44,546 bases of DNA from an uncultured Eubacteriales bacterium (lineage in GTDB: Bacteria > Bacillota > Clostridia > Oscillospirales > QAKW01), in assembly GCA_964428505.1 (NCBI GenBank), contig CAYRYQ010000005.1, positions 1 to 44,546 on the forward strand. The letters are read 5' to 3'. Positions 18,242-40,377 of this stretch are shown here, one piece after another (position 1 is the first letter of the stretch; every line of letters starts with the position of its first letter). The translations under genes were made by a program, and so were the position numbers. A model generated the notes under the pieces. The model was not told the DNA's origin and searched no databases. It saw only the letters and a program-made list of their open reading frames with translations.

Positions 18242-21200
18242 CTAATTGGCATACAAAGCGGTATAAACCGTCTGATACACGCCGGTTCTGCGGTTTTGCA
18301 GCACCAGATATCCACGGTAATAGCGGTAACCGGCGGGCGCGCTGAAACGGGCTGTTTTCGCCAAAGATGCATCGGTGAAGGCCACCGTTATGGTGCCGTC
18401 GGCTCCTTCCAGCAGCAGCTGCTGCTGCGTCTGGTTGCTGGCCAATACCCCCGCGCCCAGCAAGGTCCAATCCCCCTCCACACGACGCTGGAAGACCGTC
18501 CCGTCGGTTCTTGCGATCATTTGCAGCGCGGCCGGCTGGTAAAGAGCCTGCAGCGTCAGATCCTGATCCATCACCACCGCATAATGCGCTTTTGTGGTCA
18601 GCAGGGTTTCCCCATCCAGGCTCCAGCCATAAAACTGCGTGCCTTCCGGCGCCTCGTCCGGCGTCAGAACCACTGCATCCCCATAAGCGTATGGCCCCGC
18701 ATGGTCTGCCGTACCATTCAGGAGCGTCAGCTGGCAGGGCGCCCCTGCCGTATAGCATGGCCGCACCAGCAAATCCTGCTGCACATTCAAAAGGCTGTGA
18801 TCCCAACCGGCAAAAAGAAGCTTTTCGTTTGATGTTGTAATCAACGGGGACTGTGCGTTTTGCCCTAAGTCAAGCAACCGCGCGGATAGGATCCGGTGAT
18901 CCTGATCCAAAAAAGTCACGGTCGCTTTCCCGGGTGTCTGAAATACACCGGTCAGTGTTGTATTTTTAGACAAGCGAAAAGTATAGGCAGGGGCCTCTGA
19001 AACTATTGTCCCGGTCTCGTCTTTCCAATACAAAAATGTTCCGGCATCCGCGGTCAGGGTAAACTCCGTCCCGCACCATGCGGTTTGCTGCGCTCCATTT
19101 TCAACCGAAGCCTGATTACAGGTGATGCTTCCGCTGCCGGAAGTCGCGGTGGTCAGCGTAAATAAGCCCTCCTGATAAAGCACCGCATTGACATTCAGAT
19201 CGCCGGTCACCGCCTCAAAACCGGTGTCCCAGCCGGTCATAACCTTGCCGCTGGGAACTGCATAGACAGGTGCTGCTGCGTTCTCGCCATATGCCACTGT
19301 CTGGGTATCCAGAAGCTGCCCATCCCCAAAAAACCGCACTGTAAAAGTGCGCGCCCGCATCAACGCCTGATAGGTCCAGATATCCCCGTTTTCTGTTTTG
19401 TTCCAATGATCCAACACCGTTGACGCCGTATCCGGCGAATAGCTTCCGCCTTCGGATGCCGGCAGGTAATCCTGATAAAGAAGCCCCCCCGCTTCATCCA
19501 GATAGATCATCTGGTAAACGCGTTCGCCCCGCGGTAATAGAACCGCTTTGCCGTTTTCTAATCCGAAAACGGCGTCAGAGATGTTTTGATTGAGCAAATA
19601 GACGGCCTGTGCGGCAGAAGTGCCTTGGCCCGCCTGGCTCTGCCCGGCATTCAGGCCGCTGCTTTTGCCGCTTAAATAATAACCTTGCAGAAAACCGCGG
19701 TTAACACCGGCCAAGGCGCCGCCATAGAGGGCGGCCGAACCGCCGTTTTCCGCGTAACAGCCTTCTAATGCACCTCCGTTGACCCCAACAATACCGCCGG
19801 AGGCGCTTTGCAGCTGTGTTTCCATGTAAATACCGTAATGGTCGGAAGGCGGGCAAACTTTGCCGCTGCTATCTGTGTAGGTATCCAGCAGCACCTTGTA
19901 ATAAGAAGTGGTGGTCAGCGTCTTGGAACCGAAGCAGAAATCGATCCGGGCCGAAGGCGTTACGTTAAAGCCGTTAATGGTATTCGAATTGTTGGTCGCG
20001 TCCACCGTTGCCTGCAGCGCCAGATCCGCGCTCCAGCCGGCAATCATATTATAGGGAATGCTGCCAGGGCTCATATTATAGTCTGCCGTGATATAAAACG
20101 GTGTGGTGTCTCCGCAAAGCGCCGCAATCCGATTCTGCAGCAGCGCGGCAGACTGGATTCGGGAATTCTCGTCCAGCGGGAAATGGGTATTAAAGTAATA
20201 AAATACCTCTCCGGTTGTTTTTACCTGCAGCTTTGCCCAGGTCACTGTTCGGTTCATGGTCTCGTTGAAGCAGTAGGAAGGCGTGTCCGGCGTAGCAGAC
20301 AGCCAGAAAACACCGTTGCTCAGTAAGTTGACTTTACTGGTCTTATAAAAAATCGGCGTGGCCTCAAACCCTTTGGTCGTATTGTCGCTGCCCACCCCAC
20401 GCCAGGTCCAAAGATAGCTGTATCCGCTGAAGTCTGTTGGCAAATAGGTCTTCCAGGTAGCGTCGGCCTCCTGAAAACCGATGAGATCCGGATCCTGCGC
20501 CAAAAGAACATTCTTGACCGGAATATGCCGGTCTGCCACGCCGTGAAGATCGCCGCTGGAATTGACCCGCAGATTCTGGCCAATGATTTTTACAGTGGTT
20601 GCCGTGGAGGAAACATTGCCCGTAAAGAGGCAATCCTCCATCAGCCCTCCTAAATTATTGCCCGCAATTCCGCCTGCCACATTCCCGGAAACGGTGCCGC
20701 TCACCTGCAGGTGCGTAAGACTGCCGCTGCGGCCCAACACGCCGACAAGCCCCGCAACCGGCAGCCCGGATTGGGAAAGATTCCGGATCTGATAGCCGGC
20801 GCCGTCAAAAATCCCTTCAAACGGAGTGCTGAACGCATTTCCGATCGGTGCAAAGGATACCCCAGTCAGATCAATATCCGCACCCAGCACAACACCTTTA
20901 TTCGTCATGCGGTCTCCGCCATTGACCATGTTGGCCAATGCGACCAGCTGGCTTGCAGTGGTGATGGTATACGTGATCGGTACAAAACGGGCATAAAACA
21001 CCTCATCTGTCCGGCTTCCTGCCGGAATAGAGAGGACCCTTTCAGCCGAAAAATCCGCCTTGCGATACCAGCCGGCAAACAGCTGGCCGTCTTTTTTCAG
21101 CGCATGCAGACCGGGCAGCTGAACGGTGTCGGCAACCGTATAGGTTTCGGCGGGCTGAGCGGTAAACGTCCCGCCGTTCACCACATAAGAGAGCGAATAC

Positions 21201-24073
21201 TGAATGGCGATGGCGCTACCGGTCAGGGTCAGATCCTGAGAAAAGGCCAGCTTGTCCAGCAATTGCTCTGCGCCGGAAACTGTCACAGTCGTATAAATAT
21301 ATCCGGGCTGATTGAAATAAACCGGCATTCTCGATACGCCATAACAAGTATAAGTGCCGGACGGATTTGCGCTTTGCAGCACCGCGCGGAATACCGTTTC
21401 CCCGCAATCGGGAAACACCGGCTGCTTGTTGCGCACCGCAAAACCGCAGGTCCAGGCCGCGGCAAACGGGGCGCTTTTCTCAAACGAGGTGGCGTAGGGG
21501 TCCGTACCATCGCCGGTATAAAAACAATTTACAATCTTACCGCTGAGGTCGGTTCCGCCGGAATACAGCCCCATCGGATAACTTGCAGGGCCGCTCAGCG
21601 CGCCGAGGTTCACGCAGCGGTCCAAAACCGCGCTGCTCTGCCCCCAGGCCATGATGCCGCAGGCCCGGCTGTTCACGGTCGTTACAGCGCCATAATTGAT
21701 GCACTGCACCAGGCGGGAATAATAGGTTTTGCTGTCATACGGGCTCTTGGCTGAGCGCGCCTGAGAAACAATGCCGCCAATTCCGTTGCTGCCGTCCAAA
21801 GCGCTCACAGCCGCCTGATTGGAGCAGCGCTCAAACAGAGTGCCGTCGCCAAAACCGGCGATCCCGCCGACCTTGTCCAATCCGGTGACGCTGCCCGTGC
21901 CGATCCTCAAATCCCGGATCACCGCGCAGGAGGTGCGGCCAAACAGCCCTACCCCCACCTTGGTCGGCTCATTGATCACAAAATGCCGGATGGTATGGCC
22001 GTTTCCTTCCAGCGTTCCGTAGAAAGCGGGAAGATTCGGCACATCGGTGCCTGAAAATGCACCCCCGATTGGCGCAATCGTTTCCTGATTAAAATCCAGA
22101 TCCGCCAGCAGAGCAACGGTGCAGCCGTAAAACGGCACCCCCGCGTTCACCTGCGCCGCCAGCTGCTTCCAGTCGGCGGTATCGGCGATCTGAAAGCGCT
22201 TCAGATCAGAAAACAGCGCATAATCCTTCAATGGCGCCGACGCGGTGGTCGTGTAGGCCAATGCGCTTTTCAGCCGGCTCAGCTGCGTTATCGCCGCGCT
22301 GCAGTCCTGCCCTGCCTGAAAAGCGGTTTTCAGCGCATCCAGCGCCGTTTGATACGCCGAAAGACTTGCGGCGGTATAGCACCCGGAGGCAACCCGGCTG
22401 TTTCCTTCCGCAATGGCCGCCGCAGCCGCCCCAAGGGCAGAACGGACAATGACGTTCAGCGAATAGGCGGCAGTGGCTTTGCCGTCATAAGAGAGCACCT
22501 CCAACGTCATGGAATTGTTGCCCTCCACGCAAGGAACAGCAGACAAATCGCTGTTGCCGTTTACCTTCAGCGTTGTCCCGATCGGGGCGGAAATCCCGAA
22601 ATCAGCAAGATTCAGGGTTGTTTGATCCGTATAAACCGTAATGGACTGCGCATTCTTCGAGACCGCGGAGGCGAGCAAAACCAGGGGCGGCACCGTAGCG
22701 CTGGAAATCGTGCAGGCCGCATCGATCCAATAGAAACCGGCGTTGTACCCGGTGCCCATAGTCGGCGCCTTTCCCAAAACGCTCTGATAATCCGCAAGAG
22801 AATCGGTAAAGAAATTATCCCGGATATTCAGGGTCGTAACCGCATTGACCTGCCGCTGGAATTTTGTAAATCCCACAAAACGGTTCTGTGAGATCGTGAC
22901 CCGATCGGATAGATTTGTATTGGATACATCTGCCGCTGTCAGATAGTCTGAATAGGTCTTATCATAAGTAATATTCCAGTAAAAAGGATCCGACGCGGTC
23001 AGCGTGGAGGAAAGAAAGGTATTGCCCTGCACCAAGATCTGGTAGCCCTTTTTGACAAAAAGAGATAAAACATAATCCGCGCAGTCCCCTGAAAAAATAT
23101 TATTTGTAAACTGAATCAAACAGGCGCCGTTATATTTGTTCAGCCCCTCCATCGTCATGAAGAATCCTTTTCCTTCAGTAGAAAGGAACTGGTCGAAGTA
23201 GCAGTTCTTCACTGTAAAAGACGCATTCTGAAAATAACGCCGCCATTGGGGAAATCCAAAATAGGTGGTGGTTCCGGCGACCGTCACCAAACCATCCACC
23301 GAATAAACCGGCGGAATAGAATTGCTGCTGATCCGGCTGCTGGTCAGCGTTTCCAGCCGACAATTTTTGAGGGCAAAGCTGTCCTTGTTCCCGGCTCCGC
23401 TCTCCGCGGTATTAGCGCTGTTGGCATTGGCAAGATTAAAAACCCAGGTTCCGGTGGAAACGCCGCTCTTCTGCCGCACAATGATGTTTTCCAGCGTAAT
23501 GCCGGTTGCCACCGAACTGATCGCGCGGGCGGTATCCTCAAAGGTTCCCTGCATGACCAGCCCGCGAACGGCCACCTCCCCGGTGGTGCCCGCCGTAACC
23601 GTAATTTTGCCGGCAACGCTTTCCAGTTCCGCCACCCGTTTCGGGTTCGCCGCCGGGCAAGCTGTGTCTCCTTCGACAATCTGATTGGGATTTTCGCGAT
23701 AATAATACCCATAGAGCTCCACCGGCCCGCTGATGGTGATATTCCCCAGCTCTCCGGAAAGCGCAAAGATCCGTGGGGTTCCCCCTAAGCGAGACGCCGC
23801 CTGATAAGCCGCCGAAAAGGTGGAAAAAATGTTTTGCCCTACCGTAAACGAGTAATCATTTCCATCCCAAAACGCGTGATACGCTTCCCCGTCTTCTTTC
23901 AGCGACACGGCAGGATCATAAGCCACCCCGCCCATTGCTGTATACGCAGAAAAATCCGGCGCCGAATCGGTGGAAGCCAGGCTCCCATCCGCCCCGGAAA
24001 CAAAAGTACAAAGGCTGAATAGCAAAATTGCCGTCATCAGTCGGGCAACTGCCGTTTCCCATTTTTTCAACAT
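18242..24073 (-). CDS. Giant (1943 aa) secreted multidomain protein: beta-helix, GLUG-motif modules, endonuclease/exonuclease/phosphatase (EEP) domain, InlB-B (Listeria-Bacteroides) repeats
   Basis: Signal peptide MLKKWETAVARLMTAILLFSLCTFVSGA. GLUG-like motifs: VGGIAGFGDG, AGGIAGNNLGGLMEDC, SGGIVGVNGGALEGC. EEP hallmarks at about 19811-20593: IGFQEA, NTHF, RIDFCF, PSDHYG. InlB-B-type repeats: LFAGWY, MTGWD, LFAGWD, FYGWS. No LPXTG or S-layer-homology (SLH) anchor seen. Confidence 0.75.
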   Translation of the reverse strand: MLKKWETAVARLMTAILLFSLCTFVSGADGSLASTDSAPDFSAYTAMGGVAYDPAVSLKEDGEAYHAFWDGNDYSFTVGQNIFSTFSAAYQAASRLGGTPRIFALSGELGNITISGPVELYGYYYRENPNQIVEGDTACPAANPKRVAELESVAGKITVTAGTTGEVAVRGLVMQGTFEDTARAISSVATGITLENIIVRQKSGVSTGTWVFNLANANSANTAESGAGNKDSFALKNCRLETLTSSRISSNSIPPVYSVDGLVTVAGTTTYFGFPQWRRYFQNASFTVKNCYFDQFLSTEGKGFFMTMEGLNKYNGACLIQFTNNIFSGDCADYVLSLFVKKGYQILVQGNTFLSSTLTASDPFYWNITYDKTYSDYLTAADVSNTNLSDRVTISQNRFVGFTKFQRQVNAVTTLNIRDNFFTDSLADYQSVLGKAPTMGTGYNAGFYWIDAACTISSATVPPLVLLASAVSKNAQSITVYTDQTTLNLADFGISAPIGTTLKVNGNSDLSAVPCVEGNNSMTLEVLSYDGKATAAYSLNVIVRSALGAAAAAIAEGNSRVASGCYTAASLSAYQTALDALKTAFQAGQDCSAAITQLSRLKSALAYTTTASAPLKDYALFSDLKRFQIADTADWKQLAAQVNAGVPFYGCTVALLADLDFNQETIAPIGGAFSGTDVPNLPAFYGTLEGNGHTIRHFVINEPTKVGVGLFGRTSCAVIRDLRIGTGSVTGLDKVGGIAGFGDGTLFERCSNQAAVSALDGSNGIGGIVSQARSAKSPYDSKTYYSRLVQCINYGAVTTVNSRACGIMAWGQSSAVLDRCVNLGALSGPASYPMGLYSGGTDLSGKIVNCFYTGDGTDPYATSFEKSAPFAAAWTCGFAVRNKQPVFPDCGETVFRAVLQSANPSGTYTCYGVSRMPVYFNQPGYIYTTVTVSGAEQLLDKLAFSQDLTLTGSAIAIQYSLSYVVNGGTFTAQPAETYTVADTVQLPGLHALKKDGQLFAGWYRKADFSAERVLSIPAGSRTDEVFYARFVPITYTITTASQLVALANMVNGGDRMTNKGVVLGADIDLTGVSFAPIGNAFSTPFEGIFDGAGYQIRNLSQSGLPVAGLVGVLGRSGSLTHLQVSGTVSGNVAGGIAGNNLGGLMEDCLFTGNVSSTATTVKIIGQNLRVNSSGDLHGVADRHIPVKNVLLAQDPDLIGFQEADATWKTYLPTDFSGYSYLWTWRGVGSDNTTKGFEATPIFYKTSKVNLLSNGVFWLSATPDTPSYCFNETMNRTVTWAKLQVKTTGEVFYYFNTHFPLDENSRIQSAALLQNRIAALCGDTTPFYITADYNMSPGSIPYNMIAGWSADLALQATVDATNNSNTINGFNVTPSARIDFCFGSKTLTTTSYYKVLLDTYTDSSGKVCPPSDHYGIYMETQLQSASGGIVGVNGGALEGCYAENGGSAALYGGALAGVNRGFLQGYYLSGKSSGLNAGQSQAGQGTSAAQAVYLLNQNISDAVFGLENGKAVLLPRGERVYQMIYLDEAGGLLYQDYLPASEGGSYSPDTASTVLDHWNKTENGDIWTYQALMRARTFTVRFFGDGQLLDTQTVAYGENAAAPVYAVPSGKVMTGWDTGFEAVTGDLNVNAVLYQEGLFTLTTATSGSGSITCNQASVENGAQQTAWCGTEFTLTADAGTFLYWKDETGTIVSEAPAYTFRLSKNTTLTGVFQTPGKATVTFLDQDHRILSARLLDLGQNAQSPLITTSNEKLLFAGWDHSLLNVQQDLLVRPCYTAGAPCQLTLLNGTADHAGPYAYGDAVVLTPDEAPEGTQFYGWSLDGETLLTTKAHYAVVMDQDLTLQALYQPAALQMIARTDGTVFQRRVEGDWTLLGAGVLASNQTQQQLLLEGADGTITVAFTDASLAKTARFSAPAGYRYYRGYLVLQNRRTGVYQTVYTALYAN

Positions 24074-25229: not shown

Positions 25230-25409
25230 TTATTTTTCCTTGGTCAACCAACGGAAGTCTGGCAAAACCGCGCATCTGTTATAACTGCCGAAATACTGTT
25301 TGTTGAGAGAAGTTTCAGAAAAAGAAAACCCGATTCTACCTTCGGAAAAAGCGGTCAGAAACACAGCGTTTTCATAAGCCGGGTAATCTTTAAAATAAGT
25401 GGTAATCAT
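25230..25409 (-). CDS. Small hypothetical protein (59 aa), translationally coupled to the upstream ORF
   Basis: Found by hand; it is below the track cutoff. MITTYFKDYPAYENAVFLTAFSEGRIGFSFSETSLNKQYFGSYNRCAVLPDFRWLTKEK. Its ATG overlaps the TGA of ORF 25406-25723 (ATGA). Confidence 0.35.
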   Translation of the reverse strand: MITTYFKDYPAYENAVFLTAFSEGRIGFSFSETSLNKQYFGSYNRCAVLPDFRWLTKEK

Positions 25410-25723
25410 GCTTTCCCACGGACTCCCGTTTGTTTTTTGATCGTATTGTTTCCGGTGCCGTTCAGGGTTCGATTCAAAAATTCTGTATAGACTTCCCGTT
25501 CCGTCTCAGTTAATTCCACCCCATGGTCTTCCCCGGGAAAATAAACAATGATCGACTCCATGCGGCGATCATCGGTAATAGTCGGCAGCAAATCGCTGCT
25601 TTTATGATAAATTTCGTCATCTAGTTCGAGCCCCATCGAAATAAAAGACCGATCCGGATCTTGGGTATAGGTCTTTATTTTAATTTCCTCTTCTTCAACC
25701 GGGTGTTCCAAATCTCCGTTCAA
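25406..25723 (-). CDS. Hypothetical acidic protein (up to 105 aa; start uncertain)
   Basis: The track ORF starts at a TTG directly after an in-frame TGA. Internal ATGs (MGLELDD, MESIIVY) are alternative starts. No recognisable family. Confidence 0.35.
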   Translation of the reverse strand: MNGDLEHPVEEEEIKIKTYTQDPDRSFISMGLELDDEIYHKSSDLLPTITDDRRMESIIVYFPGEDHGVELTETEREVYTEFLNRTLNGTGNNTIKKQTGVRGKA

Positions 25724-25754
25724 TCAATGCCGTTAAATTTTGTCAACCACAGAA

Positions 25755-25794
25755 CCGTCCCCTGATTTATAAGTCGTAGGAAGACAGGGGACGG
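25755..25794. repeat. Perfect 10-bp inverted repeat (REP-like hairpin) built from two copies of the island motif
   Basis: CCGTCCCCTG (25755-25764), 20-nt loop, CAGGGGACGG (25785-25794). Confidence 0.8.
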
Positions 25795-25908
25795 CACGAT
25801 GTTTTTTGTAAGCACGGATGAACCGTCCCCCTGCGTTTCCTTTTTTGGTTTCACGCTAACCGTCCCCTGTCCTTCTTAGCACATATAACCGTTCCCTGTC
25901 TTCCCGTC

Positions 25909-26097
25909 TTATTTCTTTAAATTAATATAAATTATTATAAAACTAAATATCATATAAATCCAAAGGATAATAAGAGAACATCGTCTTAATAAACGATACC
26001 CATTGGGATGATTGAAAAGAAAAACACCTAAACATATTATGGCCACAGCCACTACAGCAGCAATTGTAATTAATAATACCATTGTACGCTTCTTCAT
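25909..26097 (-). CDS. Small two-TM protein, putative immunity protein for the orphan Rhs tip
   Basis: MKKRTMVLLITIAAVVAVAIICLGVFLF...LIILWIYMIFSFIIIYI. Starts 11 nt after the orphan stop, with AGAGAGGTG as RBS. Low GC. Confidence 0.55.
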   Translation of the reverse strand: MKKRTMVLLITIAAVVAVAIICLGVFLFNHPNGYRLLRRCSLIILWIYMIFSFIIIYINLKK

Positions 26098-26108
26098 TAT
26101 ACACCTCT

Positions 26109-27128
26109 CTATTGGCTTGCTATACGTGTAATACGTACTCCTCTTCCAAAAATGGTAAGTACATAGACTTTAATTCCCCTACCAGCAGCATTATAATACG
26201 CTAATATTCCCGCAACTGTACCAGAAAACCATGTAAACGTACCAAAGAATGCCGCTAAAAATGGGCCAACTGGAGGTGGGATAATAGCAGTAATAACCCC
26301 AGCAAAAGCAGTACTTGCACCTATGATCATTAATTTTGCAATAATTAAATTTACTGTTTTACTTGAAATATAGTACCAATATGAATATCCAGTTGGGTCG
26401 ACATACATAACTGGATCATTCCTACAATAAGTATACAAATTTGCCGCAACACCAGTATCTCCCTCATGGAAGATCGGGTCATCCTTACTGATGAATCTTC
26501 CCAATCCCGGGTCATAATAGCGGCTTTGCAGGTAATAAAGGCCAGTCTCGGTATCGTAATAATACCCTCTGTAGCGTAAGGAGTTTGCAAGCCCTAAGGT
26601 GCCCGCCTCAGGTCCGCCGATTTGAGTTAAATTGCCCCATGTATCATAAGAGTAGGTGACCAATCTGGTATGACCAAAATCAATAATTCCGGTAATATCC
26701 CCTTGCAGATTACGCTCATAAAATAATTTGACACCATTGTAAACCATGTATACCGGATTATTATTTTCATCATAAATATATTGGATTGTATTGGTACCAT
26801 CGGTTTCCCCTACAATCGTATTGCCGTCCAGTGTATAGGTCGTGGTGACGCCGTTCACGGTTTTCCCGGTGCGGATCCCATCATAGCGATAGGTATATGA
26901 CGCGGTATTCCCCAAACCGGAGTTGGTGGCCCCTGTCAGATTGCCGTTGCTCCAGCTATAGGTCCATCCGTTATACGCCGTCAGATTCCCTTCGTTGTCA
27001 TAGCTGAGAGACTGCCCGCCGCAGCCGGTCAGCTGATCCGGATCGCCGGAATTTCCGTAGGTATAGGTCTGGGTGTAAACCGCCGGTATCGAAGATAAAT
27101 CTTCCTGTCTTGTATACTTAGATTCCAA
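26109..27128 (-). CDS. Orphan Rhs C-terminal module (last YD repeats plus an alternative hydrophobic tip); probably silent as it stands
   Basis: Residues YTRQEDLSS...GVAANLY are identical to the main Rhs protein. The sequence then diverges: [16 protein letters not shown] followed by an ~87-aa Gly/Ala-rich hydrophobic tail. The only start is a TTG (MESK) with no RBS, and homology to the main gene begins at 27116. Confidence 0.75.
26440..27116 (-). repeat. Direct repeat copy A (677 bp), apparently identical to 28985-29661
   Basis: Aligned by eye, block by block, with a constant offset of 2545 bp. No mismatch noticed. Confidence 0.85.
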
Positions 27129-27221
27129 CCAATGGAACTATAGGTGTGAGAGACAGGGGACGGGACACAAGGGGACGAATCATCATTTGTGTTTGTCTTT
27201 GCCTGTCTTTCTTTTAAAACA

Positions 27222-28098
27222 TAGAACAAGGCATGGTTTAAGGATGCTGAATGGATTGCTACGCTTTTGCAGCATGGATTACTGGAGCCGTCTTTTGTCC
27301 CGGAAAGAATGATCCGGGATTTACGGGAATTTTCCCGTACCTAATAAAAATGCCGTCGGAGATAGAAGCCGATACTTGAACCGGATGGAAAAGTTTCTTC
27401 AAACGCATGGCTTTAAACTTTCCAGTGTGTTGAGTGATATTAACAGCGTCAGCGGTATAAATATTCTTTCTGTGCTTGCTGAAAAAGGCAGTCTCTCTAT
27501 TGAAGATACGTTGTCAGCACTTAAAGGAAGGCATAAGTATACCGCAGACAACATACAAAAAGCAATCTGCGGTACACTCAATGCAAACGAATGTTTCCTG
27601 CTTCAAGATTTTATGAACGAAGTCAGGCACATCCAGGAACATATTAACAGAATCCTTGAAAAAATGTAAAACATTGCCGAACCATATCGGGATGTCCTTG
27701 AAAGACTGGATTGTATCCCGGGAATTGATCAGGTAGCCGCTCTTTTGATTCTGGCTGAAATCGGAGATTGTCCGAGTAAAAATTTCCGTACCTCCCGCCA
27801 TCTTTGTTCATGGGCTGGTCTTTCGCCAAGAAATGATGAAAGTGCCGGAAAACTTAAATCGAAAAAAATACTGCCCGGAAATCCTTACGTGAAATCCATT
27901 CTTTTCCAGGTCGCTTGGGCTGCGGTTAAAAACCGAAAAACGCCTCTTGGTAATTGGTTCTGGTCTCGGCAAGGGAAAATCGGTAAAAAGAAAGCAATTA
28001 TTGCGGTGTCCCGAAAAACTCTTACACTCTGTTATGCGCTCATTTCCAACAACACTTATTACGACATTAACTACATATCCCGTCCTTTGACTGAATAA
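27222..28098 (+). mobile_element. IS110-family transposase remnant (N-terminal DEDD domain missing; one frameshift and one in-frame stop)
   Basis: (K)AWFKDAEWIATLLQHGLLEPSFVPERMIRDLREFSRT, then a frameshift near 27340. Then RYLNRMEKFLQTHGFKLSSVLSDINSVSG...ILEKM, then a TAA at about 27667. Then CIPGIDQVAALLILAEIGDC..FRTSRHLCSWAGLSPRNDESAGK...GNPYVKSILFQVAWAAV (Transposase_20 signature). Confidence 0.75.
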
Positions 28099-28256
28099 TT
28101 TTCCGTGTATATCGTATTTTTAGAAGGTTTTCCCACCGGCTTGGTTCGTTATGCCTTTTTCTTCGTTTCCCCCGGTTTTGGTTTCACGCTAACGTCCCCT
28201 GTCTTTGTGTTGCATTTCCATGCGGTATCACAAACGAATGTACTGTCCCCTTTTGT

Positions 28257-28544
28257 TCATGAATGATCTTCCGTTTGATTGCTGGCTCTTTTTTTTATTA
28301 ACACATTTTCGGCCCATACCACTATGAAGCTTGAAAGATACGGCACCCCTTGATATACAACAAGGGAAATGTCTTTAAGTTTTATCCAGAAGAAAACACT
28401 TAATAGCAAAGTTATAAACAGAATGATCGCTGTTGCTTTAGGGGAAAGTTTATAGGTCTTCAATAGTAGGAACGCCATAATCAGTGGTATAATGGCCACG
28501 AAAAAAAGAACAGATCTTTGAAACACAAAAAAGAAAAAGTTCAT
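28257..28544 (-). CDS. Small three-TM protein, putative immunity protein for the main Rhs tip
   Basis: MNFFFFVFQRSVLFFVAIIPLIMAFLLL...AIILFITLLLSVFFWI...YLSSFIVVWAENVLI. GGGAGG RBS lies directly after the Rhs TGA. The track start at 28637 is trimmed to this ATG. Confidence 0.6.
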   Translation of the reverse strand: MNFFFFVFQRSVLFFVAIIPLIMAFLLLKTYKLSPKATAIILFITLLLSVFFWIKLKDISLVVYQGVPYLSSFIVVWAENVLIKKRASNQTEDHS

Positions 28545-28554
28545 GAATCCTCCC

Positions 28555-31500
28555 TCAATAGTCTCTTGTAAAATCAAGTTTTGGTCCAAAGTGATTGGTA
28601 TCCAAATAGCCATCCCATTTTCCATCCAAGATATCAATTATATACTGGATAGTATTCCCGATTGATGAAACGATTGTTCCGATACCCGCAAGAATACCTA
28701 TTGTTCTAACTACACGATATGTAGATTCTTTGGCAAAAGCACAGTACAATCTGTCATCAAATCTTTTAAATAGACTTTTCCCTACAGCAATTAATTCATT
28801 TCCGAAAGAAACAAGTTTATTGGCAGATTTCGAAACGGTACTCCATACTTTTGAAATTGCAAATAACGTTGGTATAAGGAATATTATTAAATCAATGGTT
28901 GTACCCAACCACCTAATGTTGATTTTTATATAACCCCAAAGTTCTACATTGATGACTGGATTATTCTCGCAATACACATATAAGTTTGCCGCAACACCAG
29001 TATCTCCCTCATGGAAGATCGGGTCATCCTTACTGATGAATCTTCCCAATCCCGGGTCATAATAGCGGCTTTGCAGGTAATAAAGGCCAGTCTCGGTATC
29101 GTAATAATACCCTCTGTAGCGTAAGGAGTTTGCAAGCCCTAAGGTGCCCGCCTCAGGTCCGCCGATTTGAGTTAAATTGCCCCATGTATCATAAGAGTAG
29201 GTGACCAATCTGGTATGACCAAAATCAATAATTCCGGTAATATCCCCTTGCAGATTACGCTCATAAAATAATTTGACACCATTGTAAACCATGTATACCG
29301 GATTATTATTTTCATCATAAATATATTGGATTGTATTGGTACCATCGGTTTCCCCTACAATCGTATTGCCGTCCAGTGTATAGGTCGTGGTGACGCCGTT
29401 CACGGTTTTCCCGGTGCGGATCCCATCATAGCGATAGGTATATGACGCGGTATTCCCCAAACCGGAGTTGGTGGCCCCTGTCAGATTGCCGTTGCTCCAG
29501 CTATAGGTCCATCCGTTATACGCCGTCAGATTCCCTTCGTTGTCATAGCTGAGAGACTGCCCGCCGCAGCCGGTCAGCTGATCCGGATCGCCGGAATTTC
29601 CGTAGGTATAGGTCTGGGTGTAAACCGCCGGTATCGAAGATAAATCTTCCTGTCTTGTATAATCATAGACTTTTTTAACGGTTATATTGCCACTTTCATC
29701 GTAGGAATAACAGATGGTTTCTCCAAGCACTCCGTTATCTTCCCGCACCAGCTGATCATTTCCATCATAGGTATAATAATTCTCTGTTTCAGCATTGTTT
29801 AGTGCCGGATGATCCGAGTGAATCGTCCGGATTGTTGATACAATATTGCCGTCTACATCATAAGTATATGCATAGGTATTTTGCTCATTGGCAACTCCCA
29901 TCCCAAAGTTGACCACATTGCCGGCCGTATCATACTCATAGTTTAAATACCAATCATCTGTGTTTGTTGCAAAGACAAGCTTGCCATTAGGATCATAGCG
30001 ATATTCATGCTCGCGAACTTGGCTATATGCCGCTTTTGTTAGATTTCCACTCCTGTCATAATAAAATTCTGTTCCATCCGGCTTTTTGACTGTTTTAGTG
30101 GTTCCGTCATCATAGTACGTATACCGGTAGCCTACGGTATTGTTGGAATAGGTATCGGCAGGCATAGACGCGTTCAACCCATCGCAGAACGCGACATATT
30201 GATCGGGACCAATTTTTTGGATAAGCTGTTGGCTGGCATTATAGACATAGCGGGTCACGCCGCCATCCGGGGCGATTTCACGCAGCAGCTGGTCACCACT
30301 TCCATAGGTATAGCGGAACCCAACGCTGCTGCTGGCATAGGTATCGGTAGGAGTGGAAGCATTCAGCCCATCGTCCGCGGCGACGTATTGCTGCGGGTTA
30401 ATCTGCTGAATCAATTTCTTATTCGCATCATAGAGATACCGCGTGGTATCCCCATTGGGCGCGATTTCCCGGGCTAACGCACCAAAGCTGTTATAGGTAT
30501 ACCGGTAACCGGCCGAGGGGTTTAGGTAGGTATCTACCGGGGTGATATTATAAAGCCCGTCATCCGCTGCGTCATACTGATCGGAGCCGATTTTTTGCGC
30601 CAGCCTGCGGTTACTGTCGTAAACATAACGGGTGACTTTCCCTTGCGTGTTGGTATAGCGCAGAACGCCGCCGTATTGATTATACACATAACGTTCGCCC
30701 ACCATCGGATTGCTGTACTGATAGGAAACGGGGGTGGAATTCAGGCCATCCTGCGCCGACCGGTAACGGTCCGCGCTGATTTTTTGAAGCAGGCGCCCCG
30801 CCGCATCGTAGACATAGCGGGTATATGTGCCGTCTTGATCCTTTGTGCGCACCACTGTTCCGTTTAAGTCGTAGACATTCGTCACGGAAGTGGTGCCGAC
30901 GCTGTTGGTCACCACGGCGCTTAAATTCCAGCCGATGGCATTATAGGTGTTGACGGTGGTCTCCGTAGTAACCCCGCCCTTCACTGTCTCCGCTGTCAGC
31001 TGATTGCCATGACTGTCATAGGTGTAAGTGGTGACCGCGCCTTCCGGATCGGTTGCCGTTTCTAACATTCCATCGGAATAATACGTATATTGATTGATTG
31101 TAAACAGGGACTGATTGCACCCGGCCGTGTAATCGATGGTGGTTCCATCCTTTTGCTTTGCGACCAAAAGCGCATTCCCATAAGCATCGTTCTGATAGAA
31201 GGTCTTCATGCCGTTCCGATCCGTATAGGTGACTAAAAATCCGTTTTCATCATAGCTGTACAGCTCTGAGGTGCTGTTGGAATAAACGGCGCTGGTCACA
31301 TCACCGCGTGCATTGTATTGATACACGGTCTGATCCGCCGCGGTAAGCGTTTCCCCATATTGATTATAGGTCGTTGTTCCTGTTTCGGTTTGAACGCTTT
31401 GCAGCCGCCCTGTGGCGTCATGATTGTACCGGGTCTCATTGCCGCTGCTGTCGGTTGCAATATAAATCAGCGCTACCACCGGATCCGCATGATAAGTTAC

Positions 31501-34500
31501 CGTCTCCCCGGCGGAGTCCGTTACGGAGGTCACCTGCCCGGCAGATGAATAGGCGATGGCCTCTTTTGTATTGCCAAGTGGATCGGCAACCTGTGTTAAA
31601 CGCGTATTTGTATAAGCATAGGTGGTGGTCTGCCCCATCGGATTGGTTGCGCCGGTCAGCAAATCGCCGGTGTAACTATAAGTGACTGCGCGGCCGGCCG
31701 GATCTGTGATGGAGGTGATTTTTCCGTTGGTATACCCAATGGCATAGGACTGACCCGCAGTGGAAAGAACCGACTGCACCTGCCCGCCTGTTCCCAGCGT
31801 GATGGTGGTCGTGTTTCCGTACACATCGGCGATGGAGGCCAAATATCCGTCGGTGTTAAAATGGTACTGAACCTGATCGGCGTCGGTCAGAGTGAAGGTG
31901 CCGTTCTCATTCAGCGCCAGTGTTGCGTGGGAATCATAGGAGGTGTAAATCCCGTTATCCCATACAAACTGGAGGGATTGACCGAAAAGTGTCACCACCT
32001 TTAACGTGGGGAGCTCCCCGGTTGTCTGAACGCCGCTGTCGTTCAGATAGGTGTATTTGGAATTTTGAACGCGGCCGGAATAGCTGAACGACCAGCCTTT
32101 TCCTAAAACGCCGGTTTCGGTCTGCGCGGAATCATAATTTCTTTCGATCGTTACGCCAGAACCGACAGAGCTTCCGGTCAAATCCGTAAAGGACTCGGTA
32201 TAATTCCCGATCGCCTGCGTTGTCAGAACATGATTGACCGTCACCTTTTGAACCAGCTCTTCACCGGAAATCTTTCTTTCATAAACGGTATAAACCCCGT
32301 TTTGATTAACGGTAAACTGATCTCCGCTGAAGAATGTGCCATGATTAGAAAAATAGTCTTTGGTGTGGTCGCCGATCGCCCATTTCTGGTAGGAGGTGGG
32401 AATAATAGAACTATCGGTAACGGTTACGGTATTCGTTGCGCCCCAGGTATCCTGGGCAACCGCTTCAAAATAAACCAAATTGGTTGGAACCTTTACCTTA
32501 TTGTTATAGCCTAATCCCAACGCACCATTTTCGTTACTTCCGCAGACAGACACCATTTCATCAGATGATATAGCATAAACGGTACCATTTCCTAAAACTA
32601 CTTCATCAACATAGTCCAACCCTGGTACAGTCACAGGAGTTGTCTCTGTACTGCTGTATTGATCTCCGATTCCCAGAGCGCTTTTCCCTCTTCCCCAGGA
32701 TTTTATGCCATCCCAATTAATTGCATAAGCATAGTCATCTTTTGCCACCAATTGAGACACATTGTAAAAATTCGAGACTTGTGTGGGTATGGTCTTGTTT
32801 GAGGCATCCCCTACACCCAGTTGTCCATAAGTGTTATTTCCCCAGGAATATATACATCCTTCGGCCAACGCATAAACTGAAGTCCCGCTTACCATAATAG
32901 AACCTACATAAAAAAGGCCTATGTCCACCGGATAGTATTGCGGAGAGGGATTACCCGTTCCAAGAACGCCCTGATAATTGGATCCCCAGGCCATTATAGT
33001 TGTATGGTAACCGCTCGCATCAATAGCGAAAGCAAAGCCGTTTCCTGCAACCACGTCAACAGCGTAATTTACAGAAGTACAAACAGGAGTAGAACTACTT
33101 ACGGTGTTGCCTATCCCAAGTTCTCCATTGCCATTATACCCCCATGCAACCAAAACCCCATCATGATCGAGCAAAGCGTAAACACTGCGGGTTTGCCCGG
33201 AATCTGCCACAGCGATTTTCCGAACATCTGTCAGTCCGGATATGATTACTGGCGTTGATTGATTTTGTGTATTGCCAATACCCAATTGGCCATAATTATT
33301 TAATCCCCAAGCCTTTACGGTTCCGTCATTTAACAGGGCAAATGCACAATGATTTCCCGCGACAACTTCCTTTACATCGGATAAGTTGTTTACGGTTACA
33401 GGAGAATTATGATTGGTTGTATTGCCAATCCCCAGTTCTCCATATGTGTTTTCCCCCCAGGCCTTTACCGTTCCGTCGCGCAACACGGCATAAACGGTAT
33501 TACTCCCCGGATAACTGGATAGTGATTCCACGTTGTTAAGATTTGAAATAGTGATCGGTGTATATTGGGCAGTTTCATTTCCAATGCCCAGCTGTCCATA
33601 TTGATTGTTGCCCCAAGCCTTTACAGTCCCATCCCAAAAAAGAGCATAGGCTGATTGAGAGCCGGTCACAATCTTTTTAGTACCATATAAAGAATTTTGT
33701 GAAAAAAATGTTGATATATCAGAGATTCTGCCGATACCAAGTTGACCGAAACCATTGTCACCCCATACTTTTACACTTCCATCATTGAGAACTGCGTAAA
33801 CGCTGGCATTTGCAACCGCAATATGATTTACACCCGCAAGGTCTGGTATAATGGCAGGGGACTGCTGCAGCACAGTATCTCCCAAGCCCAGCTGATATCC
33901 AATGCTATAGCCCCATGCTGCCACCGTTCCATTATTCTTAATTGCAAAAGCACCGTAAAATCCCGCAATCAATTGATTAACTTGGCTAAGGCTTGGGATA
34001 GCTACAGGGGAAGTCTGCGTGGTCGTATCACCATTGCCAAGCTGAAAAAAGCCATTGCCGCCCCACGAACGGACCGTCCCGTCGTTCAAAAGCGCATAAG
34101 CGCAATAAGAGCCCGTAACAATCTGTTTCACATCTCCAAGACCTGAAATGTCAACCGGTAAAGTCTGTGTTTGTGTATTGCCTACACCAAGCTGACCATA
34201 ATTATTATAGCCCCATGCCTTCACTGTACTGTTATTCATTAGGGCAAAAACATAATTGTCCCCTGTAATGATTTGGTTGACCCCAGTAAGGGAAGATAGG
34301 GAAACAGGGGAAATTTGCGTTGTTGTGTTCCCAATACCAAGTTGCCCATATCCATTAATACCCCATGCTTTAACTGTTCCATCATCTATAACAGCATAAG
34401 CACAATTGGTCCCTGTTACTATTTGATCAACTCCCGTAAGATTTGATATGGAAACTGGGGATGTCCGATTCGCTGTATCCCCTAATCCAAGCTGACCATA

Positions 34501-35007
34501 ATTATTATAGCCCCATGCTTTAACGGTGCCATCATTCATCAATGCAAAAGCAAACTTGTCTCCTGCTGCTATTAAATGAACTCCTGTAAGGCCTGCAATG
34601 GTAACAGGGGATAATTGATTCGTTGTATTCCCGATACCAAGCTGCCCATAGTTGTTATTGCCCCATGCTTTAACCGTTCCATCTTCCATAAGGGCATATG
34701 CGCAGTCCGTTCCTGCTATCATGTCGTCTACATCTGTAAGGCCAGGAACAGTTACAGGCGAATACTGCAAATCCGTGTTGCCAATACCAAGCCGGCCATC
34801 CCCATTATATCCCCAGGCCATTACGGTATCATTTTCCATAAGAGCGAAGGTAGAGGACCCCGATTTGCTTGCAATGATCTGCTTCATTTTAACATGATTA
34901 TTGCTGGATGAGGAATCTGCGAATGCAATGACGCCCAAAGATTGAATGCCGATGAAAATCACCAAAAAAATTGATAAAAACCGAACCCATTTCTTTGTTC
35001 CTCGCAT
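28555..35007 (-). CDS. Sec-signal RCC1-repeat / Rhs (YD-repeat) polymorphic toxin, 2150 aa
   Basis: Signal peptide ...GVIAFA|DSS. About 16 RCC1 blades (AWGYNNYGQLGIGNT-type). Ig-like spacer. Rhs shell onset ...GVLGKGWSFSYSG. Many YD repeats. Shell end [15 protein letters not shown]...ANLYVYCENNPVINVELWGY. Then an ~126-aa hydrophobic C-terminal tip. Confidence 0.9.
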   Translation of the reverse strand: MRGTKKWVRFLSIFLVIFIGIQSLGVIAFADSSSSNNHVKMKQIIASKSGSSTFALMENDTVMAWGYNGDGRLGIGNTDLQYSPVTVPGLTDVDDMIAGTDCAYALMEDGTVKAWGNNNYGQLGIGNTTNQLSPVTIAGLTGVHLIAAGDKFAFALMNDGTVKAWGYNNYGQLGLGDTANRTSPVSISNLTGVDQIVTGTNCAYAVIDDGTVKAWGINGYGQLGIGNTTTQISPVSLSSLTGVNQIITGDNYVFALMNNSTVKAWGYNNYGQLGVGNTQTQTLPVDISGLGDVKQIVTGSYCAYALLNDGTVRSWGGNGFFQLGNGDTTTQTSPVAIPSLSQVNQLIAGFYGAFAIKNNGTVAAWGYSIGYQLGLGDTVLQQSPAIIPDLAGVNHIAVANASVYAVLNDGSVKVWGDNGFGQLGIGRISDISTFFSQNSLYGTKKIVTGSQSAYALFWDGTVKAWGNNQYGQLGIGNETAQYTPITISNLNNVESLSSYPGSNTVYAVLRDGTVKAWGENTYGELGIGNTTNHNSPVTVNNLSDVKEVVAGNHCAFALLNDGTVKAWGLNNYGQLGIGNTQNQSTPVIISGLTDVRKIAVADSGQTRSVYALLDHDGVLVAWGYNGNGELGIGNTVSSSTPVCTSVNYAVDVVAGNGFAFAIDASGYHTTIMAWGSNYQGVLGTGNPSPQYYPVDIGLFYVGSIMVSGTSVYALAEGCIYSWGNNTYGQLGVGDASNKTIPTQVSNFYNVSQLVAKDDYAYAINWDGIKSWGRGKSALGIGDQYSSTETTPVTVPGLDYVDEVVLGNGTVYAISSDEMVSVCGSNENGALGLGYNNKVKVPTNLVYFEAVAQDTWGATNTVTVTDSSIIPTSYQKWAIGDHTKDYFSNHGTFFSGDQFTVNQNGVYTVYERKISGEELVQKVTVNHVLTTQAIGNYTESFTDLTGSSVGSGVTIERNYDSAQTETGVLGKGWSFSYSGRVQNSKYTYLNDSGVQTTGELPTLKVVTLFGQSLQFVWDNGIYTSYDSHATLALNENGTFTLTDADQVQYHFNTDGYLASIADVYGNTTTITLGTGGQVQSVLSTAGQSYAIGYTNGKITSITDPAGRAVTYSYTGDLLTGATNPMGQTTTYAYTNTRLTQVADPLGNTKEAIAYSSAGQVTSVTDSAGETVTYHADPVVALIYIATDSSGNETRYNHDATGRLQSVQTETGTTTYNQYGETLTAADQTVYQYNARGDVTSAVYSNSTSELYSYDENGFLVTYTDRNGMKTFYQNDAYGNALLVAKQKDGTTIDYTAGCNQSLFTINQYTYYSDGMLETATDPEGAVTTYTYDSHGNQLTAETVKGGVTTETTVNTYNAIGWNLSAVVTNSVGTTSVTNVYDLNGTVVRTKDQDGTYTRYVYDAAGRLLQKISADRYRSAQDGLNSTPVSYQYSNPMVGERYVYNQYGGVLRYTNTQGKVTRYVYDSNRRLAQKIGSDQYDAADDGLYNITPVDTYLNPSAGYRYTYNSFGALAREIAPNGDTTRYLYDANKKLIQQINPQQYVAADDGLNASTPTDTYASSSVGFRYTYGSGDQLLREIAPDGGVTRYVYNASQQLIQKIGPDQYVAFCDGLNASMPADTYSNNTVGYRYTYYDDGTTKTVKKPDGTEFYYDRSGNLTKAAYSQVREHEYRYDPNGKLVFATNTDDWYLNYEYDTAGNVVNFGMGVANEQNTYAYTYDVDGNIVSTIRTIHSDHPALNNAETENYYTYDGNDQLVREDNGVLGETICYSYDESGNITVKKVYDYTRQEDLSSIPAVYTQTYTYGNSGDPDQLTGCGGQSLSYDNEGNLTAYNGWTYSWSNGNLTGATNSGLGNTASYTYRYDGIRTGKTVNGVTTTYTLDGNTIVGETDGTNTIQYIYDENNNPVYMVYNGVKLFYERNLQGDITGIIDFGHTRLVTYSYDTWGNLTQIGGPEAGTLGLANSLRYRGYYYDTETGLYYLQSRYYDPGLGRFISKDDPIFHEGDTGVAANLYVYCENNPVINVELWGYIKINIRWLGTTIDLIIFLIPTLFAISKVWSTVSKSANKLVSFGNELIAVGKSLFKRFDDRLYCAFAKESTYRVVRTIGILAGIGTIVSSIGNTIQYIIDILDGKWDGYLDTNHFGPKLDFTRDY
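28985..29661 (-). repeat. Direct repeat copy B (677 bp), inside the main Rhs gene
   Basis: See copy A. Encodes YTRQEDLSS...GVAANLY. Confidence 0.85.
32480..34878 (-). repeat. Tandem coding repeats of about 150-160 bp (RCC1 blades) within the Rhs gene
   Basis: Sixteen recurrences of the (A/S)WG.N..G(Q/E)LG.G(N/D)T motif, spaced about 50-52 aa apart. Confidence 0.85.
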
Positions 35008-35059
35008 TTGATACGTCCCTCCTTATTTTCCATTTTTTACAAAATGGTTTAATATAAAA

Positions 35060-35088
35060 TATATATCACTTTTCATTTAATTTGTCAA
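35060..35088 (-). promoter_or_regulatory. Candidate sigma-A promoter of the Rhs gene
   Basis: Reverse strand: TTGACA (35088-35083), 17-nt spacer, TATATA (35065-35060), in an AT-rich 250-bp spacer. Confidence 0.4.
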
Positions 35089-35202
35089 TGTTTTTTATTT
35101 AATTTATTCCATTTTTGAAATTTTATTGTACTGAATGAATTATATATTAATTAAAAAATGGAATTTCATTTTATAATATTGAAGAGAAAAAACAAATTTT
35201 TA

Positions 35203-35249
35203 AAAAAATATCCAGAGGCAAATACATTTTTTGCTTCTGGATATTTTTT
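35203..35249 (-). terminator. Terminator of the P-type ATPase operon
   Basis: Reverse strand: ATATCCAGAAGCAA ... TTGCCTCTGGATAT (one mismatch) followed by a T-run, starting 8 nt after the stop. Confidence 0.7.
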
Positions 35250-35256
35250 ATCGATA

Positions 35257-37104
35257 CTATTGAATTTTCTGCAGGGCTCTGGCCGCGTTGATAATCGCCA
35301 AAATCATCACGCCGACATCGGCAAAAACCGCAAACCACATATTGGCCAGCCCCAGGGCACCCAAAGCCAGCACCAAAGCCTTTACCCCCAGCGCAAATGT
35401 AATGTTTTCCTTCACAATCCGCATCGTTTTGCGGGCAATGCGCACGGCCAGCGCGATTTTGGAGGGCTGATCATCCATCAGCACCACATCTGCGGCCTCG
35501 ATGGCCGCGTCGCTCCCCATGGCGCCCATCGCGATGCCAAGATCCGCCCGGGAAAGCACCGGTGCGTCGTTGATGCCGTCACCCACAAAGGCAAGACTGC
35601 CGCCCTTGCGTTTTTGCTTCAACAGCCGCTCTACCGCGGCAACCTTCTGGTCGGGCAACAGCTCGGTGGCAATTTCGTCCAGCTCCAGCGCCTGCCCCAC
35701 CGCTTCCCCGACCCGGCGGATATCGCCGGTCAGCATCACGGTTTTCTCCACACCGGCTCTCTTCAGAGCGGCGATCGCCGCTTTGGCGTCTGGCTTCACT
35801 TCGTCGGCAATCACAATATGCCCGGCGTATTCCCCGTTGATCGCCACATGAATCACCGTTCCCACCTGATGACATTCATGCCACGCGGCACCGGCCTGAT
35901 CCATCAGCTTGCCGTTTCCGGCATAAACCGTTTTTCCATCAATCACCGCCCGGATCCCCCGGCCGGACAACTCCTCGGTTTCCGTAATCCGGCTCTGGTC
36001 GATATGCCCCCCGTGGGCCCGCACAATGGAGGCCGCGATCGGATGGGTGGAATAGCTTTCCGCCAGTGCCGCTATGTCCAGAAGTGCCTTTTCCGAAATT
36101 TTTTCAGGATGAACGGCAGTCACCGTGAAGGTGCCCTTTGTCAGCGTTCCGGTCTTGTCGAACACCACGGTACGGACCTTGGAAAGCACCTCCAGATAGT
36201 TGGCGCCTTTCACCAAAATTCCTTCCCGGGAAGCGCCGCCGATCCCGCCGAAAAAGGACAGCGGCACCGAAATCACCAGCGCACAGGGGCAGCTCACCAC
36301 CAGAAAGATCAGCGCCCGGTTGATCCAATCGCTCCAAGTGCCGCCAAAAAACAGCGGCGGCAACACTGCCAGCAGCAGCGCGCCGATCACCACGCACGGG
36401 GTGTAAACCCTGGCAAAGCGCGTAATAAAGTTTTCCGCCTTCGCTTTCTTCGCCGAAGCGTTTTCCACCAGATCCAGAATTTTGGAAACAGTGCTCTCCC
36501 CAAACAGACTGGTCACCCGTACCCGAATCACCCCATCCAGATTGACGGAGCCGCTCACCACGTTGTCCCCGGCGTTTTTTTCCTGCGGCAACGATTCCCC
36601 GGTCAGCGCGGCGGTGTCTATATTGGTTTTGCCGTCTGCAATCACCCCGTCCAGCGGCACCCTTTCTCCGGGCTTCACCAGAATCAGCTCCCCCACCTGC
36701 ACTTCGTCGGGGGATATCTTCTGCTCGACGCCATCCCGGATCACATTGGCATAGTCCGGCCGGATATCCATCAAGGCCGCGATCGAACGGCGGCTTTTTC
36801 CCACCGCAATGCTTTGGAACAGCTCGCCCACCTGATAAAACAGCATCACCGCCACTGCCTCCGGATATTCCCGGATTCCAAAGGCCCCCACGGTGGCCAG
36901 GGCCATCAGAAAGCTTTCATCAAACCATTCCCCATGAAAAATCCCGCGCACCGCGTTCCAAATCACATCATAGCCCACCAGCAAATAGGGCACCAGAAAA
37001 ATAGGCAGCCGGGCAATTCCCCTGACCGGCAGAAGCACCGCCGCCGCAAACAGGATCCCTGCCGCGATCAGTCGGTACAGATTGCGTTTCTGCTTTTTGT
37101 TCAT
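35257..37104 (-). CDS. P1B-type heavy-metal (Zn/Cd/Pb-class) translocating ATPase, lacking a fused HMA domain
   Basis: SCPCALVISVP (CPC), DKTGTLT, STHPIA, GDGINDAP, and FADVG in the last TM region. 615 aa. Confidence 0.9.
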   Translation of the reverse strand: MNKKQKRNLYRLIAAGILFAAAVLLPVRGIARLPIFLVPYLLVGYDVIWNAVRGIFHGEWFDESFLMALATVGAFGIREYPEAVAVMLFYQVGELFQSIAVGKSRRSIAALMDIRPDYANVIRDGVEQKISPDEVQVGELILVKPGERVPLDGVIADGKTNIDTAALTGESLPQEKNAGDNVVSGSVNLDGVIRVRVTSLFGESTVSKILDLVENASAKKAKAENFITRFARVYTPCVVIGALLLAVLPPLFFGGTWSDWINRALIFLVVSCPCALVISVPLSFFGGIGGASREGILVKGANYLEVLSKVRTVVFDKTGTLTKGTFTVTAVHPEKISEKALLDIAALAESYSTHPIAASIVRAHGGHIDQSRITETEELSGRGIRAVIDGKTVYAGNGKLMDQAGAAWHECHQVGTVIHVAINGEYAGHIVIADEVKPDAKAAIAALKRAGVEKTVMLTGDIRRVGEAVGQALELDEIATELLPDQKVAAVERLLKQKRKGGSLAFVGDGINDAPVLSRADLGIAMGAMGSDAAIEAADVVLMDDQPSKIALAVRIARKTMRIVKENITFALGVKALVLALGALGLANMWFAVFADVGVMILAIINAARALQKIQ

Positions 37105-37122
37105 CCTTCACCGCCTCTTTCG

Positions 37123-37691: not shown

Positions 37692-37703
37692 ATATGAGCC
37701 CCC

Positions 37704-37754: not shown

Positions 37755-37769
37755 CCCTTTATTAAAAAG

Positions 37770-37798: not shown

Positions 37799-37835
37799 GC
37801 ATTTAATAACAAATATGCAAAAGGAGCTGTTTTCC

Positions 37836-40346: not shown

Positions 40347-40377
40347 CCCCGATCGGCCGATGAGCTCCGAAAGTGCT

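Follow-up and report, generated by a model that had tools for sequence, protein, structure and literature searches.

Organisation of the rhs locus

The stretch of DNA analysed here, referred to throughout as the window, is an entire 44,546-bp metagenome contig (CAYRYQ010000005.1, assembly GCA_964428505.1) from an uncultured Eubacteriales bacterium, and it carries an rhs locus in which a full-length gene is followed by a second, truncated copy of its own 3' end bearing a different C-terminal tip. The full-length gene (28555-35007, minus strand) encodes 2150 amino acids (aa) and was delimited from its open reading frame (ORF) and from matches in Pfam and NCBIfam. Its product opens with a putative Sec-type signal peptide, read from the sequence MRGTKKWVRFLSIFLVIFIGIQSLGVIAFA, and continues through RCC1 beta-propellers (about 840 residues, approximately residues 40-880), a DUF6531 domain, an RHS/YD-repeat shell and an Rhs-associated core before ending in what is here called tip A. 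The Pfam matches comprised WD40_RLD/RCC1 (2e-152), RHS_repeat (PF05593, 2.7e-41, in six stretches) and DUF6531, whilst the NCBIfam model TIGR03696 (Rhs_assc_core) was matched at 5.1e-16 by the main copy and at 2.6e-19 by the truncated one, both scores lying over the 32.5-bit cutoff.

The last part of the gene, cassette A (28555-28984, minus strand), has a guanine plus cytosine (GC) content of only about 33-35%, and its translation consists of a release motif, VYCENNPVINVELWGY, the hydrophobic tip A of 124 aa, which contains hydrophobic windows, and the stop codon. Beyond that stop codon lies a small gene of 95 aa (28257-28544, minus strand) with two hydrophobic stretches, which appears to encode a membrane-spanning protein; its ATG is 10 nt past the rhs stop, behind a GGGAGG ribosome-binding site, and its position marks it as a candidate immunity gene, here designated A.

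Some 1.4 kb downstream of the full-length gene and in the same orientation is an orphan module, the layout known for dissociated rhs C-terminal tip and immunity pairs. Its ORF (26109-27128, minus strand) encodes 339 aa, has a TTG at 27128 as its only opening and lacks the N-terminal region altogether, and the fragment is not preceded by any credible start codon or ribosome-binding site. The ORF is made up of a 5'-truncated fragment of the rhs shell (26440-27116, minus strand), designated R-orphan, and of cassette B (26109-26439, minus strand), whose translation gives a release motif, the glycine-rich and hydrophobic tip B of 91 aa and a stop codon. Candidate immunity gene B (25909-26097, minus strand) follows; it encodes 62 aa with two hydrophobic helices, and its ATG stands 11 nt past the orphan stop codon, behind AGAGGTG. 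No additional orphan module was detected in the window by tblastn.

Past a 19-residue motif tips A and B are unrelated to one another. Neither tip has a match among the families of Pfam, NCBIfam or PDB, and the same is true of both immunity candidates. Tip B has one weak relative, P0001, with 28% identity over 100 aa. This protein, of 183 aa, is likewise an orphan module from an Rhs C-terminus, its contig having no full-length gene upstream of it (L004 3365-4118, L005 2910-3663), and it is followed after 16 nt by an ORF of 61 aa with two helices, which is placed and built as immunity candidate B is and has no sequence similarity to it.

The repeated shell end

A base-by-base comparison of the fragment R-orphan with the corresponding part of the full-length gene, R-main (28985-29661, minus strand), gave identity at all 677 positions, the offset being 2545 bp throughout. 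No other run of identity of at least 15 nt is present at that offset, the pair was also returned by a repeat finder, and a repeat of this size is beyond chance origin. The BLASTN match of the pair extends to 719 bp at 98.2% identity (26398-27116 against 28943-29661), all 13 mismatches being confined to 42 bp on its tip-proximal side, and on the shell side there is an abrupt loss of similarity at 27116/29661. Each copy is in frame and comprises the final 225 codons of the shell, given as residues 1783-2010 of the full-length protein, up to the sequence GVAANLY.

Base composition changes at precisely the same point. The GC content of the repeat is 47.7%, and that of the neighbouring shell 44-54%, but it steps down exactly at GVAANLY to 27-37% in the release motif, both tips and both immunity candidates. 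The step argues that the repeat is duplicated resident shell sequence, and that each cassette, consisting of motif, tip and immunity gene, came from an AT-rich pool. The island as a whole has a GC content below that of its flanks (55-58%).

An earlier, sequence-only reading of this stretch had described the 677-bp identity at a 2545-bp offset, its coding of the last YD-repeat residues as far as GVAANLY, the low GC of the island and an IS110 remnant between the copies, and each of these statements is borne out by the base-by-base comparison, the translation, the composition of the flanks and the family matches described below; the BLASTN alignment it had called for placed no scattered mismatches within the 677-bp block, all of them lying in the 42-bp tip-side stretch. 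It had also put the divergence of the two proteins into different tips directly at the end of the repeat. The tips are indeed unrelated, but the identity stops 16 codons short of the canonical tip boundary, from which it follows that each cassette has its own release motif.

Elements between and around the copies

The IS110-family transposase pseudogene (27225-28098, plus strand) was recognised by Transposase_20 (3.8e-20) and by positions 97-130 of the 155 of DEDD_Tnp_IS110 (4e-4). It keeps the whole Transposase_20 domain, whilst the first ~96 DEDD positions and the upstream non-coding part of the element are gone, and what is left has been damaged by one frameshift (near 27313-27341) and one in-frame stop (27667-27669). 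The NCBIfam IS110 model covers it over positions 236-342 of 343 with 81 bits, below the cutoff of 140 for an intact element. The insertion sequence between the repeat copies is decayed and the copies themselves are not, an observation that bears on the question of gene conversion.

On one side of the pseudogene a 108-bp stretch (27117-27224) separates it from R-orphan and contains in its sequence one GGGGACGG motif, at 27153. On the other side, a spacer (28099-28256) separates it from immunity gene A and includes a 31-nt element (28176-28206) with a motif match at 28190. BLASTN aligned this element over 32 columns at 94% identity with 25843-25874, so that it follows both immunity genes, and it contains the border motif. 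The downstream end of the island is marked by an intergenic cluster (25735-25908), which contains four ACAGGGGACGGTT-like motifs in both orientations and has a fold z-score of -2.8. The window contains nine ACAGGGGACGGTT motifs against 0.81 expected, six of which are at cassette borders (25753-25899, 27153-27165 and 28190-28202). The possibility that the GGGGACGG motif is a genome-wide repetitive extragenic palindromic element was considered and rejected: there was none in 69 kb of related genomes and almost none in the window outside the island. A search of Rfam returned no match in either the window or the island.

A single-crossover model for tip displacement

In enterobacterial rhs loci the core of a dissociated tip is reported never to differ from the main core of the same locus, and it was proposed that the old tip is displaced downstream when a circle bearing core fragment, tip and intervening genes integrates through a single homologous crossover, an episomal reservoir of such circles being postulated (Jackson 2009, PMC2935791). 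The present locus resembles these C-terminal displacement loci in having a co-oriented core fragment with a different tip and a small gene after the full-length gene, in the identity of the two cores, and in the drop in GC at the border of core and tip. Moreover, the duplicated unit matches in its make-up the one-crossover circle that was predicted (PMC2935791): its 2545 bp comprise the repeat, motif A with tip A, immunity gene A, the spacer, the IS110 remnant and the 108-bp stretch, which is the form expected for a single-crossover insertion. It differs from the enterobacterial loci in its Clostridia host, in relying on a signal peptide and RCC1 propellers for delivery instead of PAAR, VgrG and the type VI secretion system, in possessing one orphan only, in having an IS110 pseudogene inside the unit, and in that the motif travels with the tip, the identity ending 16 codons before DPxG.

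These features suggest the following model. The gene expressed at present would be that for a Sec-exported RCC1-Rhs protein with tip A at the end of its shell, and cells making it would owe their protection to the small membrane protein of the next gene downstream. Tip B, with an immunity gene of its own, would be an earlier or alternative tip lying behind the main gene on a 677-bp copy of the 3' end of the shell. A circular or linear cassette with a shell fragment would have been integrated at the end of the shell through one homologous crossover, an event that would duplicate the repeat and push tip B downstream. In the reverse direction, crossing over of the RecA type between the copies would excise the 2545-bp unit, and the predicted product is an in-frame gene of 2117 aa in which Rhs is joined to tip B, with immunity gene B 11 nt downstream. 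Both the direction of the historical event and the occurrence of recombination at a useful rate are inferred.

There is direct precedent for such an exchange. In Salmonella Typhimurium LT2 recombination between main and orphan copies was demonstrated over 522 bp of 95% identity and led to expression of the orphan tip (Koskiniemi 2014, PMC3967940). As in the rhs-main/rhs-CT-orphan pair of LT2, a homologous stretch is present in both copies, and recombination would join the orphan tip to the full-length gene and drop the main tip and its immunity gene. In LT2 recombination was observed, whereas here the 677 bp at 100% identity are known from sequence alone. The sequence-only reading had foreseen a deletion of tip A, immunity gene A and the IS110 remnant that would fuse the full-length gene to tip B with its immunity gene directly downstream, and the geometry proves to be right. 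The suggestion that this constitutes a one-step swap of tips holds as regards geometry and precedent, but the swap would not be free, since immunity gene A is lost too.

It is considered about 75% probable that this is an rhs polymorphic-toxin locus in a displaced-tip state, in a Gram-positive host among the uncultured Clostridia. The toxin and immunity roles of the ORFs are inferred. Support for the interpretation comes from the two small hydrophobic ORFs, each 10-11 nt past a toxin stop codon and behind a Shine-Dalgarno sequence, from the independent assembly of the sequence running from tip B through the repeat into the flank of the insertion sequence, which is described below, and from the absence of the island beside the isoleucyl-tRNA synthetase (IleRS) gene in the nearest Clostridia genomes together with its lower GC content.

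A local origin for the duplication, with no incoming cassette, is unlikely. The 3' end of the gene could have been duplicated by unequal exchange between sister chromosomes or by an IS110-associated rearrangement, one tip being replaced later and gene conversion keeping the repeat identical. A decayed, 5'-truncated IS110 copy does lie 108 bp from the boundary of the orphan repeat, and an insertion sequence with a frameshift and a stop next to an unchanged repeat would fit homogenisation, if the decay took place in situ; however, the element was perhaps already decayed when the cassette arrived. The 32-nt element 3' of both immunity genes is in keeping with a donor locus of like design, and the single-crossover model gives an exact duplication in one step (PMC2935791). 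The identity had earlier been taken as a sign of recent duplication or of ongoing gene conversion. The identity is exact, but it is also the expected footprint of a single-crossover insertion, so that ongoing conversion is not required, and perfect identity by itself need not indicate it.

Assembly and the points that weigh against the model

The contig was assembled from a sludge sample at about 5x depth and is available as short-read contigs only, and the locus was found in just two samples (S1 and S2) of one sludge study, in contigs of low depth. An important consideration is therefore whether the repeat might be an assembly effect, either because the copies are similar but not identical or because the tandem order represents a wrong path through a collapsed repeat. 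An independent Logan contig from run X1 passes without a break from tip B across the repeat and on into the flank of the insertion sequence (26324-27519), and further Logan contigs cover the IS110 remnant, immunity gene A and the distal half of tip A. The Logan contigs leave both junctions of the main copy uncovered, namely that between the repeat and tip A (28775-28977) and that between the repeat and the Rhs body (29662-29711), and the depth of the repeat in X1, estimated from contig depths, is approximately 1.4 times that of single-copy sequence. Since 677 bp is too long for short-read phasing, the assembler could have collapsed a small number of true differences between the copies, and the perfect identity could in part be an effect of short-read assembly. 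Against this explanation, the 2150-aa ORF is in frame across both of the uncovered junctions, and no variant letters occur within the repeat in X1 or X3, save for a paralogue of 82% identity. In addition, the segment consisting of tip A, immunity gene A and the insertion sequence leads back into the repeat, which makes the assembled order the only linear path that uses all the segments; the alternative, a chromosome with Rhs joined to tip B plus a 2545-bp circle, would simply be the recombined state. An assembly effect of either kind is considered very unlikely. Among the joints between contigs outside the island, the few that occur fall within conserved genes common to other organisms.

The uncovered junctions are one of a number of points that weigh against the displaced-tip model. 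No joint corresponding to the deletion or to the circle was present within the island in the Logan contigs of any run, these being low-depth short-read contigs. Neither the locus nor its deleted or circular form is carried by any related genome or metagenome in the databases searched, and in those databases tip B was never found on a full-length Rhs protein. The toxin and immunity roles are predicted ones, and neither tip belongs to a described family. A simple deletion would drop immunity gene A as well and, by analogy with Salmonella, where the locus had first been duplicated, with the main immunity gene retained, before the recombinants appeared, it should be counter-selected among siblings making tip A (PMC3967940).

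The last of these points concerns the release of the tip. The motif reads ELWGY (VELWGY) in the main copy, with Glu at the position usually occupied by the Asp of the second DPxGL motif, and the canonical DPTGY (VDPTGY) in the orphan (28930-28984 and 26385-26439, respectively); Asp was present at this position in 97 of 98 related C-termini. The substitution D1338N in Rhs1 of P. laumondii abolishes C-terminal cleavage (PMC8636562), as D1141A and D1164A abolish auto-cleavage in Tse5 (PMC9637101). With Glu in place of the catalytic Asp, then, tip A may not be released normally, and the predicted swap would bring back the canonical Asp motif. The Glu-for-Asp change in the release motif of the expressed gene is a testable oddity.

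Delivery, action of the tips and the role of the orphan

The full-length protein lacks the attributes of one delivered by a type VI secretion system: its N-terminus is made up of the signal peptide and RCC1 propellers with no PAAR or VgrG-binding part, and there were no type VI secretion domains among the proteins of the window. It would most reasonably be exported by the Sec pathway, as are the Rhs proteins of the WapA type in Bacillus subtilis and Streptococcus suis (PMC12704120). Like these it has a signal peptide, a YD shell, a polymorphic C-terminal toxin and a downstream immunity gene, and comes from a Firmicute, but it has ~840 residues of RCC1 propellers where WapA has wall-binding repeats.

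There is a roughly even chance that tips A and B would act on membranes, possibly by forming pores, as each is short and hydrophobic, falls in no enzymatic family and has a small membrane protein as its partner. The nearest parallel is Tse5 (RhsP1) of Pseudomonas aeruginosa, an Rhs protein with a membrane-inserting, pore-forming tip that is released by a DPxGL aspartyl protease motif (PMC9637101). Like that of Tse5, the tips at this locus are small, hydrophobic, C-terminal and without an enzymatic family; unlike Tse5, to which no sequence similarity was found, their action on membranes is suggested by hydrophobicity and by the membrane-spanning immunity candidates alone.

The orphan pair may also be viewed in terms of its present use, the alternative being that it is kept for immunity against neighbours deploying tip B, or as a stand-alone pair of the toxin-antitoxin kind, and not for swapping. 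Orphan immunity genes and a role of rhs orphans resembling that of type II toxin-antitoxin systems have been described (PMC10539506, PMC7043789), and immunity gene B has its own ribosome-binding site. The orphan toxin fragment, however, has no good start codon or ribosome-binding site before it, and retention for immunity is compatible with recombination and leaves the perfect identity over 677 bp unexplained. As a substitute for the displaced-tip model it is unlikely.

The locus extends the known main/orphan architecture of rhs loci, with an unusually clean footprint of a single unit, to an uncultured Gram-positive anaerobe of sludge. What is new is the host, the Sec-exported RCC1-Rhs carrier and the tips; the layout itself is well described, of which this is an ordinary example, and the current understanding of polymorphic toxins is unchanged by it. 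With one pair of repeats, one predicted deletion and one predicted circle the locus offers a natural test bed, which could reveal whether tip cassettes travel in circular form and whether a swap is paid for in immunity.

Relatives of the locus and carriers of the repeat

Searches for relatives of the proteins yielded little. An exact look-up of the full-length Rhs protein found no record, and the closest full-length relative reaches no more than 47% identity, and that over part of the length. The full-length search was dominated by RCC1 proteins, the best Rhs-containing relative being P0174 with 33% identity. A search with the tips only against 1.84 billion representatives gave two marginal matches, although, with representatives clustered at 50%, a variant of the tip could be concealed behind one that carries another tip. 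The scan of metagenomes with tip B returned only two matches, both to the core motif, and the scan of GTDB species representatives with the orphan returned only a 35% match in Anaeroplasma. The protein search with short queries gave only proteins of 261 aa or fewer, apparently because of a length filter, and was blind to full-length carriers.

The distribution of the repeat in the second sample was different from that of the rest of the locus. In sample S2 (run X3), where the host occurs only sporadically, 89% of the sequence words of the repeat were present (26461-27116 / 29006-29661), compared with 8% of those of the Rhs body, ~9-12% for other parts of the host and 0% for tip B, and the S2 contigs stop exactly at 27116/29661. 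A Poisson estimate puts the excess of the repeat at about 7-fold, for which two copies per genome are insufficient, and the repeat probably has other, more abundant carriers in that sample. It may be that the 2545-bp unit is now, or recently was, a free tip cassette, and that the repeat serves as the common recombination handle of a pool of such cassettes in the community of anaerobic Firmicutes. The excess in S2 and the restriction of the GGGGACGG motif to the island, where it is found at every cassette border, would both fit, but this is quite unlikely. To our knowledge a free tip cassette has never been caught directly. Runs X2, X4 and X6, which are labelled as metagenomic RNA-Seq, are near-identical in size to the DNA runs X1, X3 and X5, and the same contigs and depths were found where this was checked, for X2 and X4; they are apparently the same data entered under two studies and so provide no evidence of expression.

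Host and neighbouring genes

The housekeeping genes of the window include those for glutamate synthase, IleRS and a zinc ABC transporter. The IleRS is 82-85% identical to proteins of uncultured Clostridia and 78% identical to that of a metagenome-assembled genome of the Acutalibacteraceae, which indicates that the host is a Gram-positive anaerobe without a sequenced close relative. In the nearest Clostridia genomes neither the island nor an Rhs gene is next to the gene for IleRS, and the order of the genes between the Rhs island and IleRS (35007-40700) is unlike that in those genomes (L009-L011). An ORF of 878 aa in this interval (37710-40346) was considered as the counterpart of a cation ATPase of the relatives and was rejected, for the equal size of 878 aa is coincidental, the proteins are unrelated and the ORF has no Pfam family.

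On the other side of the locus, in the low-GC stretch just past the motif cluster, there is an acidic ORF of 105 aa (25406-25723, minus strand) with no family match, which could be a further orphan immunity gene or non-coding. Further along, 1.8 kb past the island, lies a gene (18242-24073, minus strand) for a secreted non-Rhs protein of 1943 aa that combines an Exo_endo_phos nuclease/phosphatase domain with Listeria-Bacteroides/InlB B-repeats.

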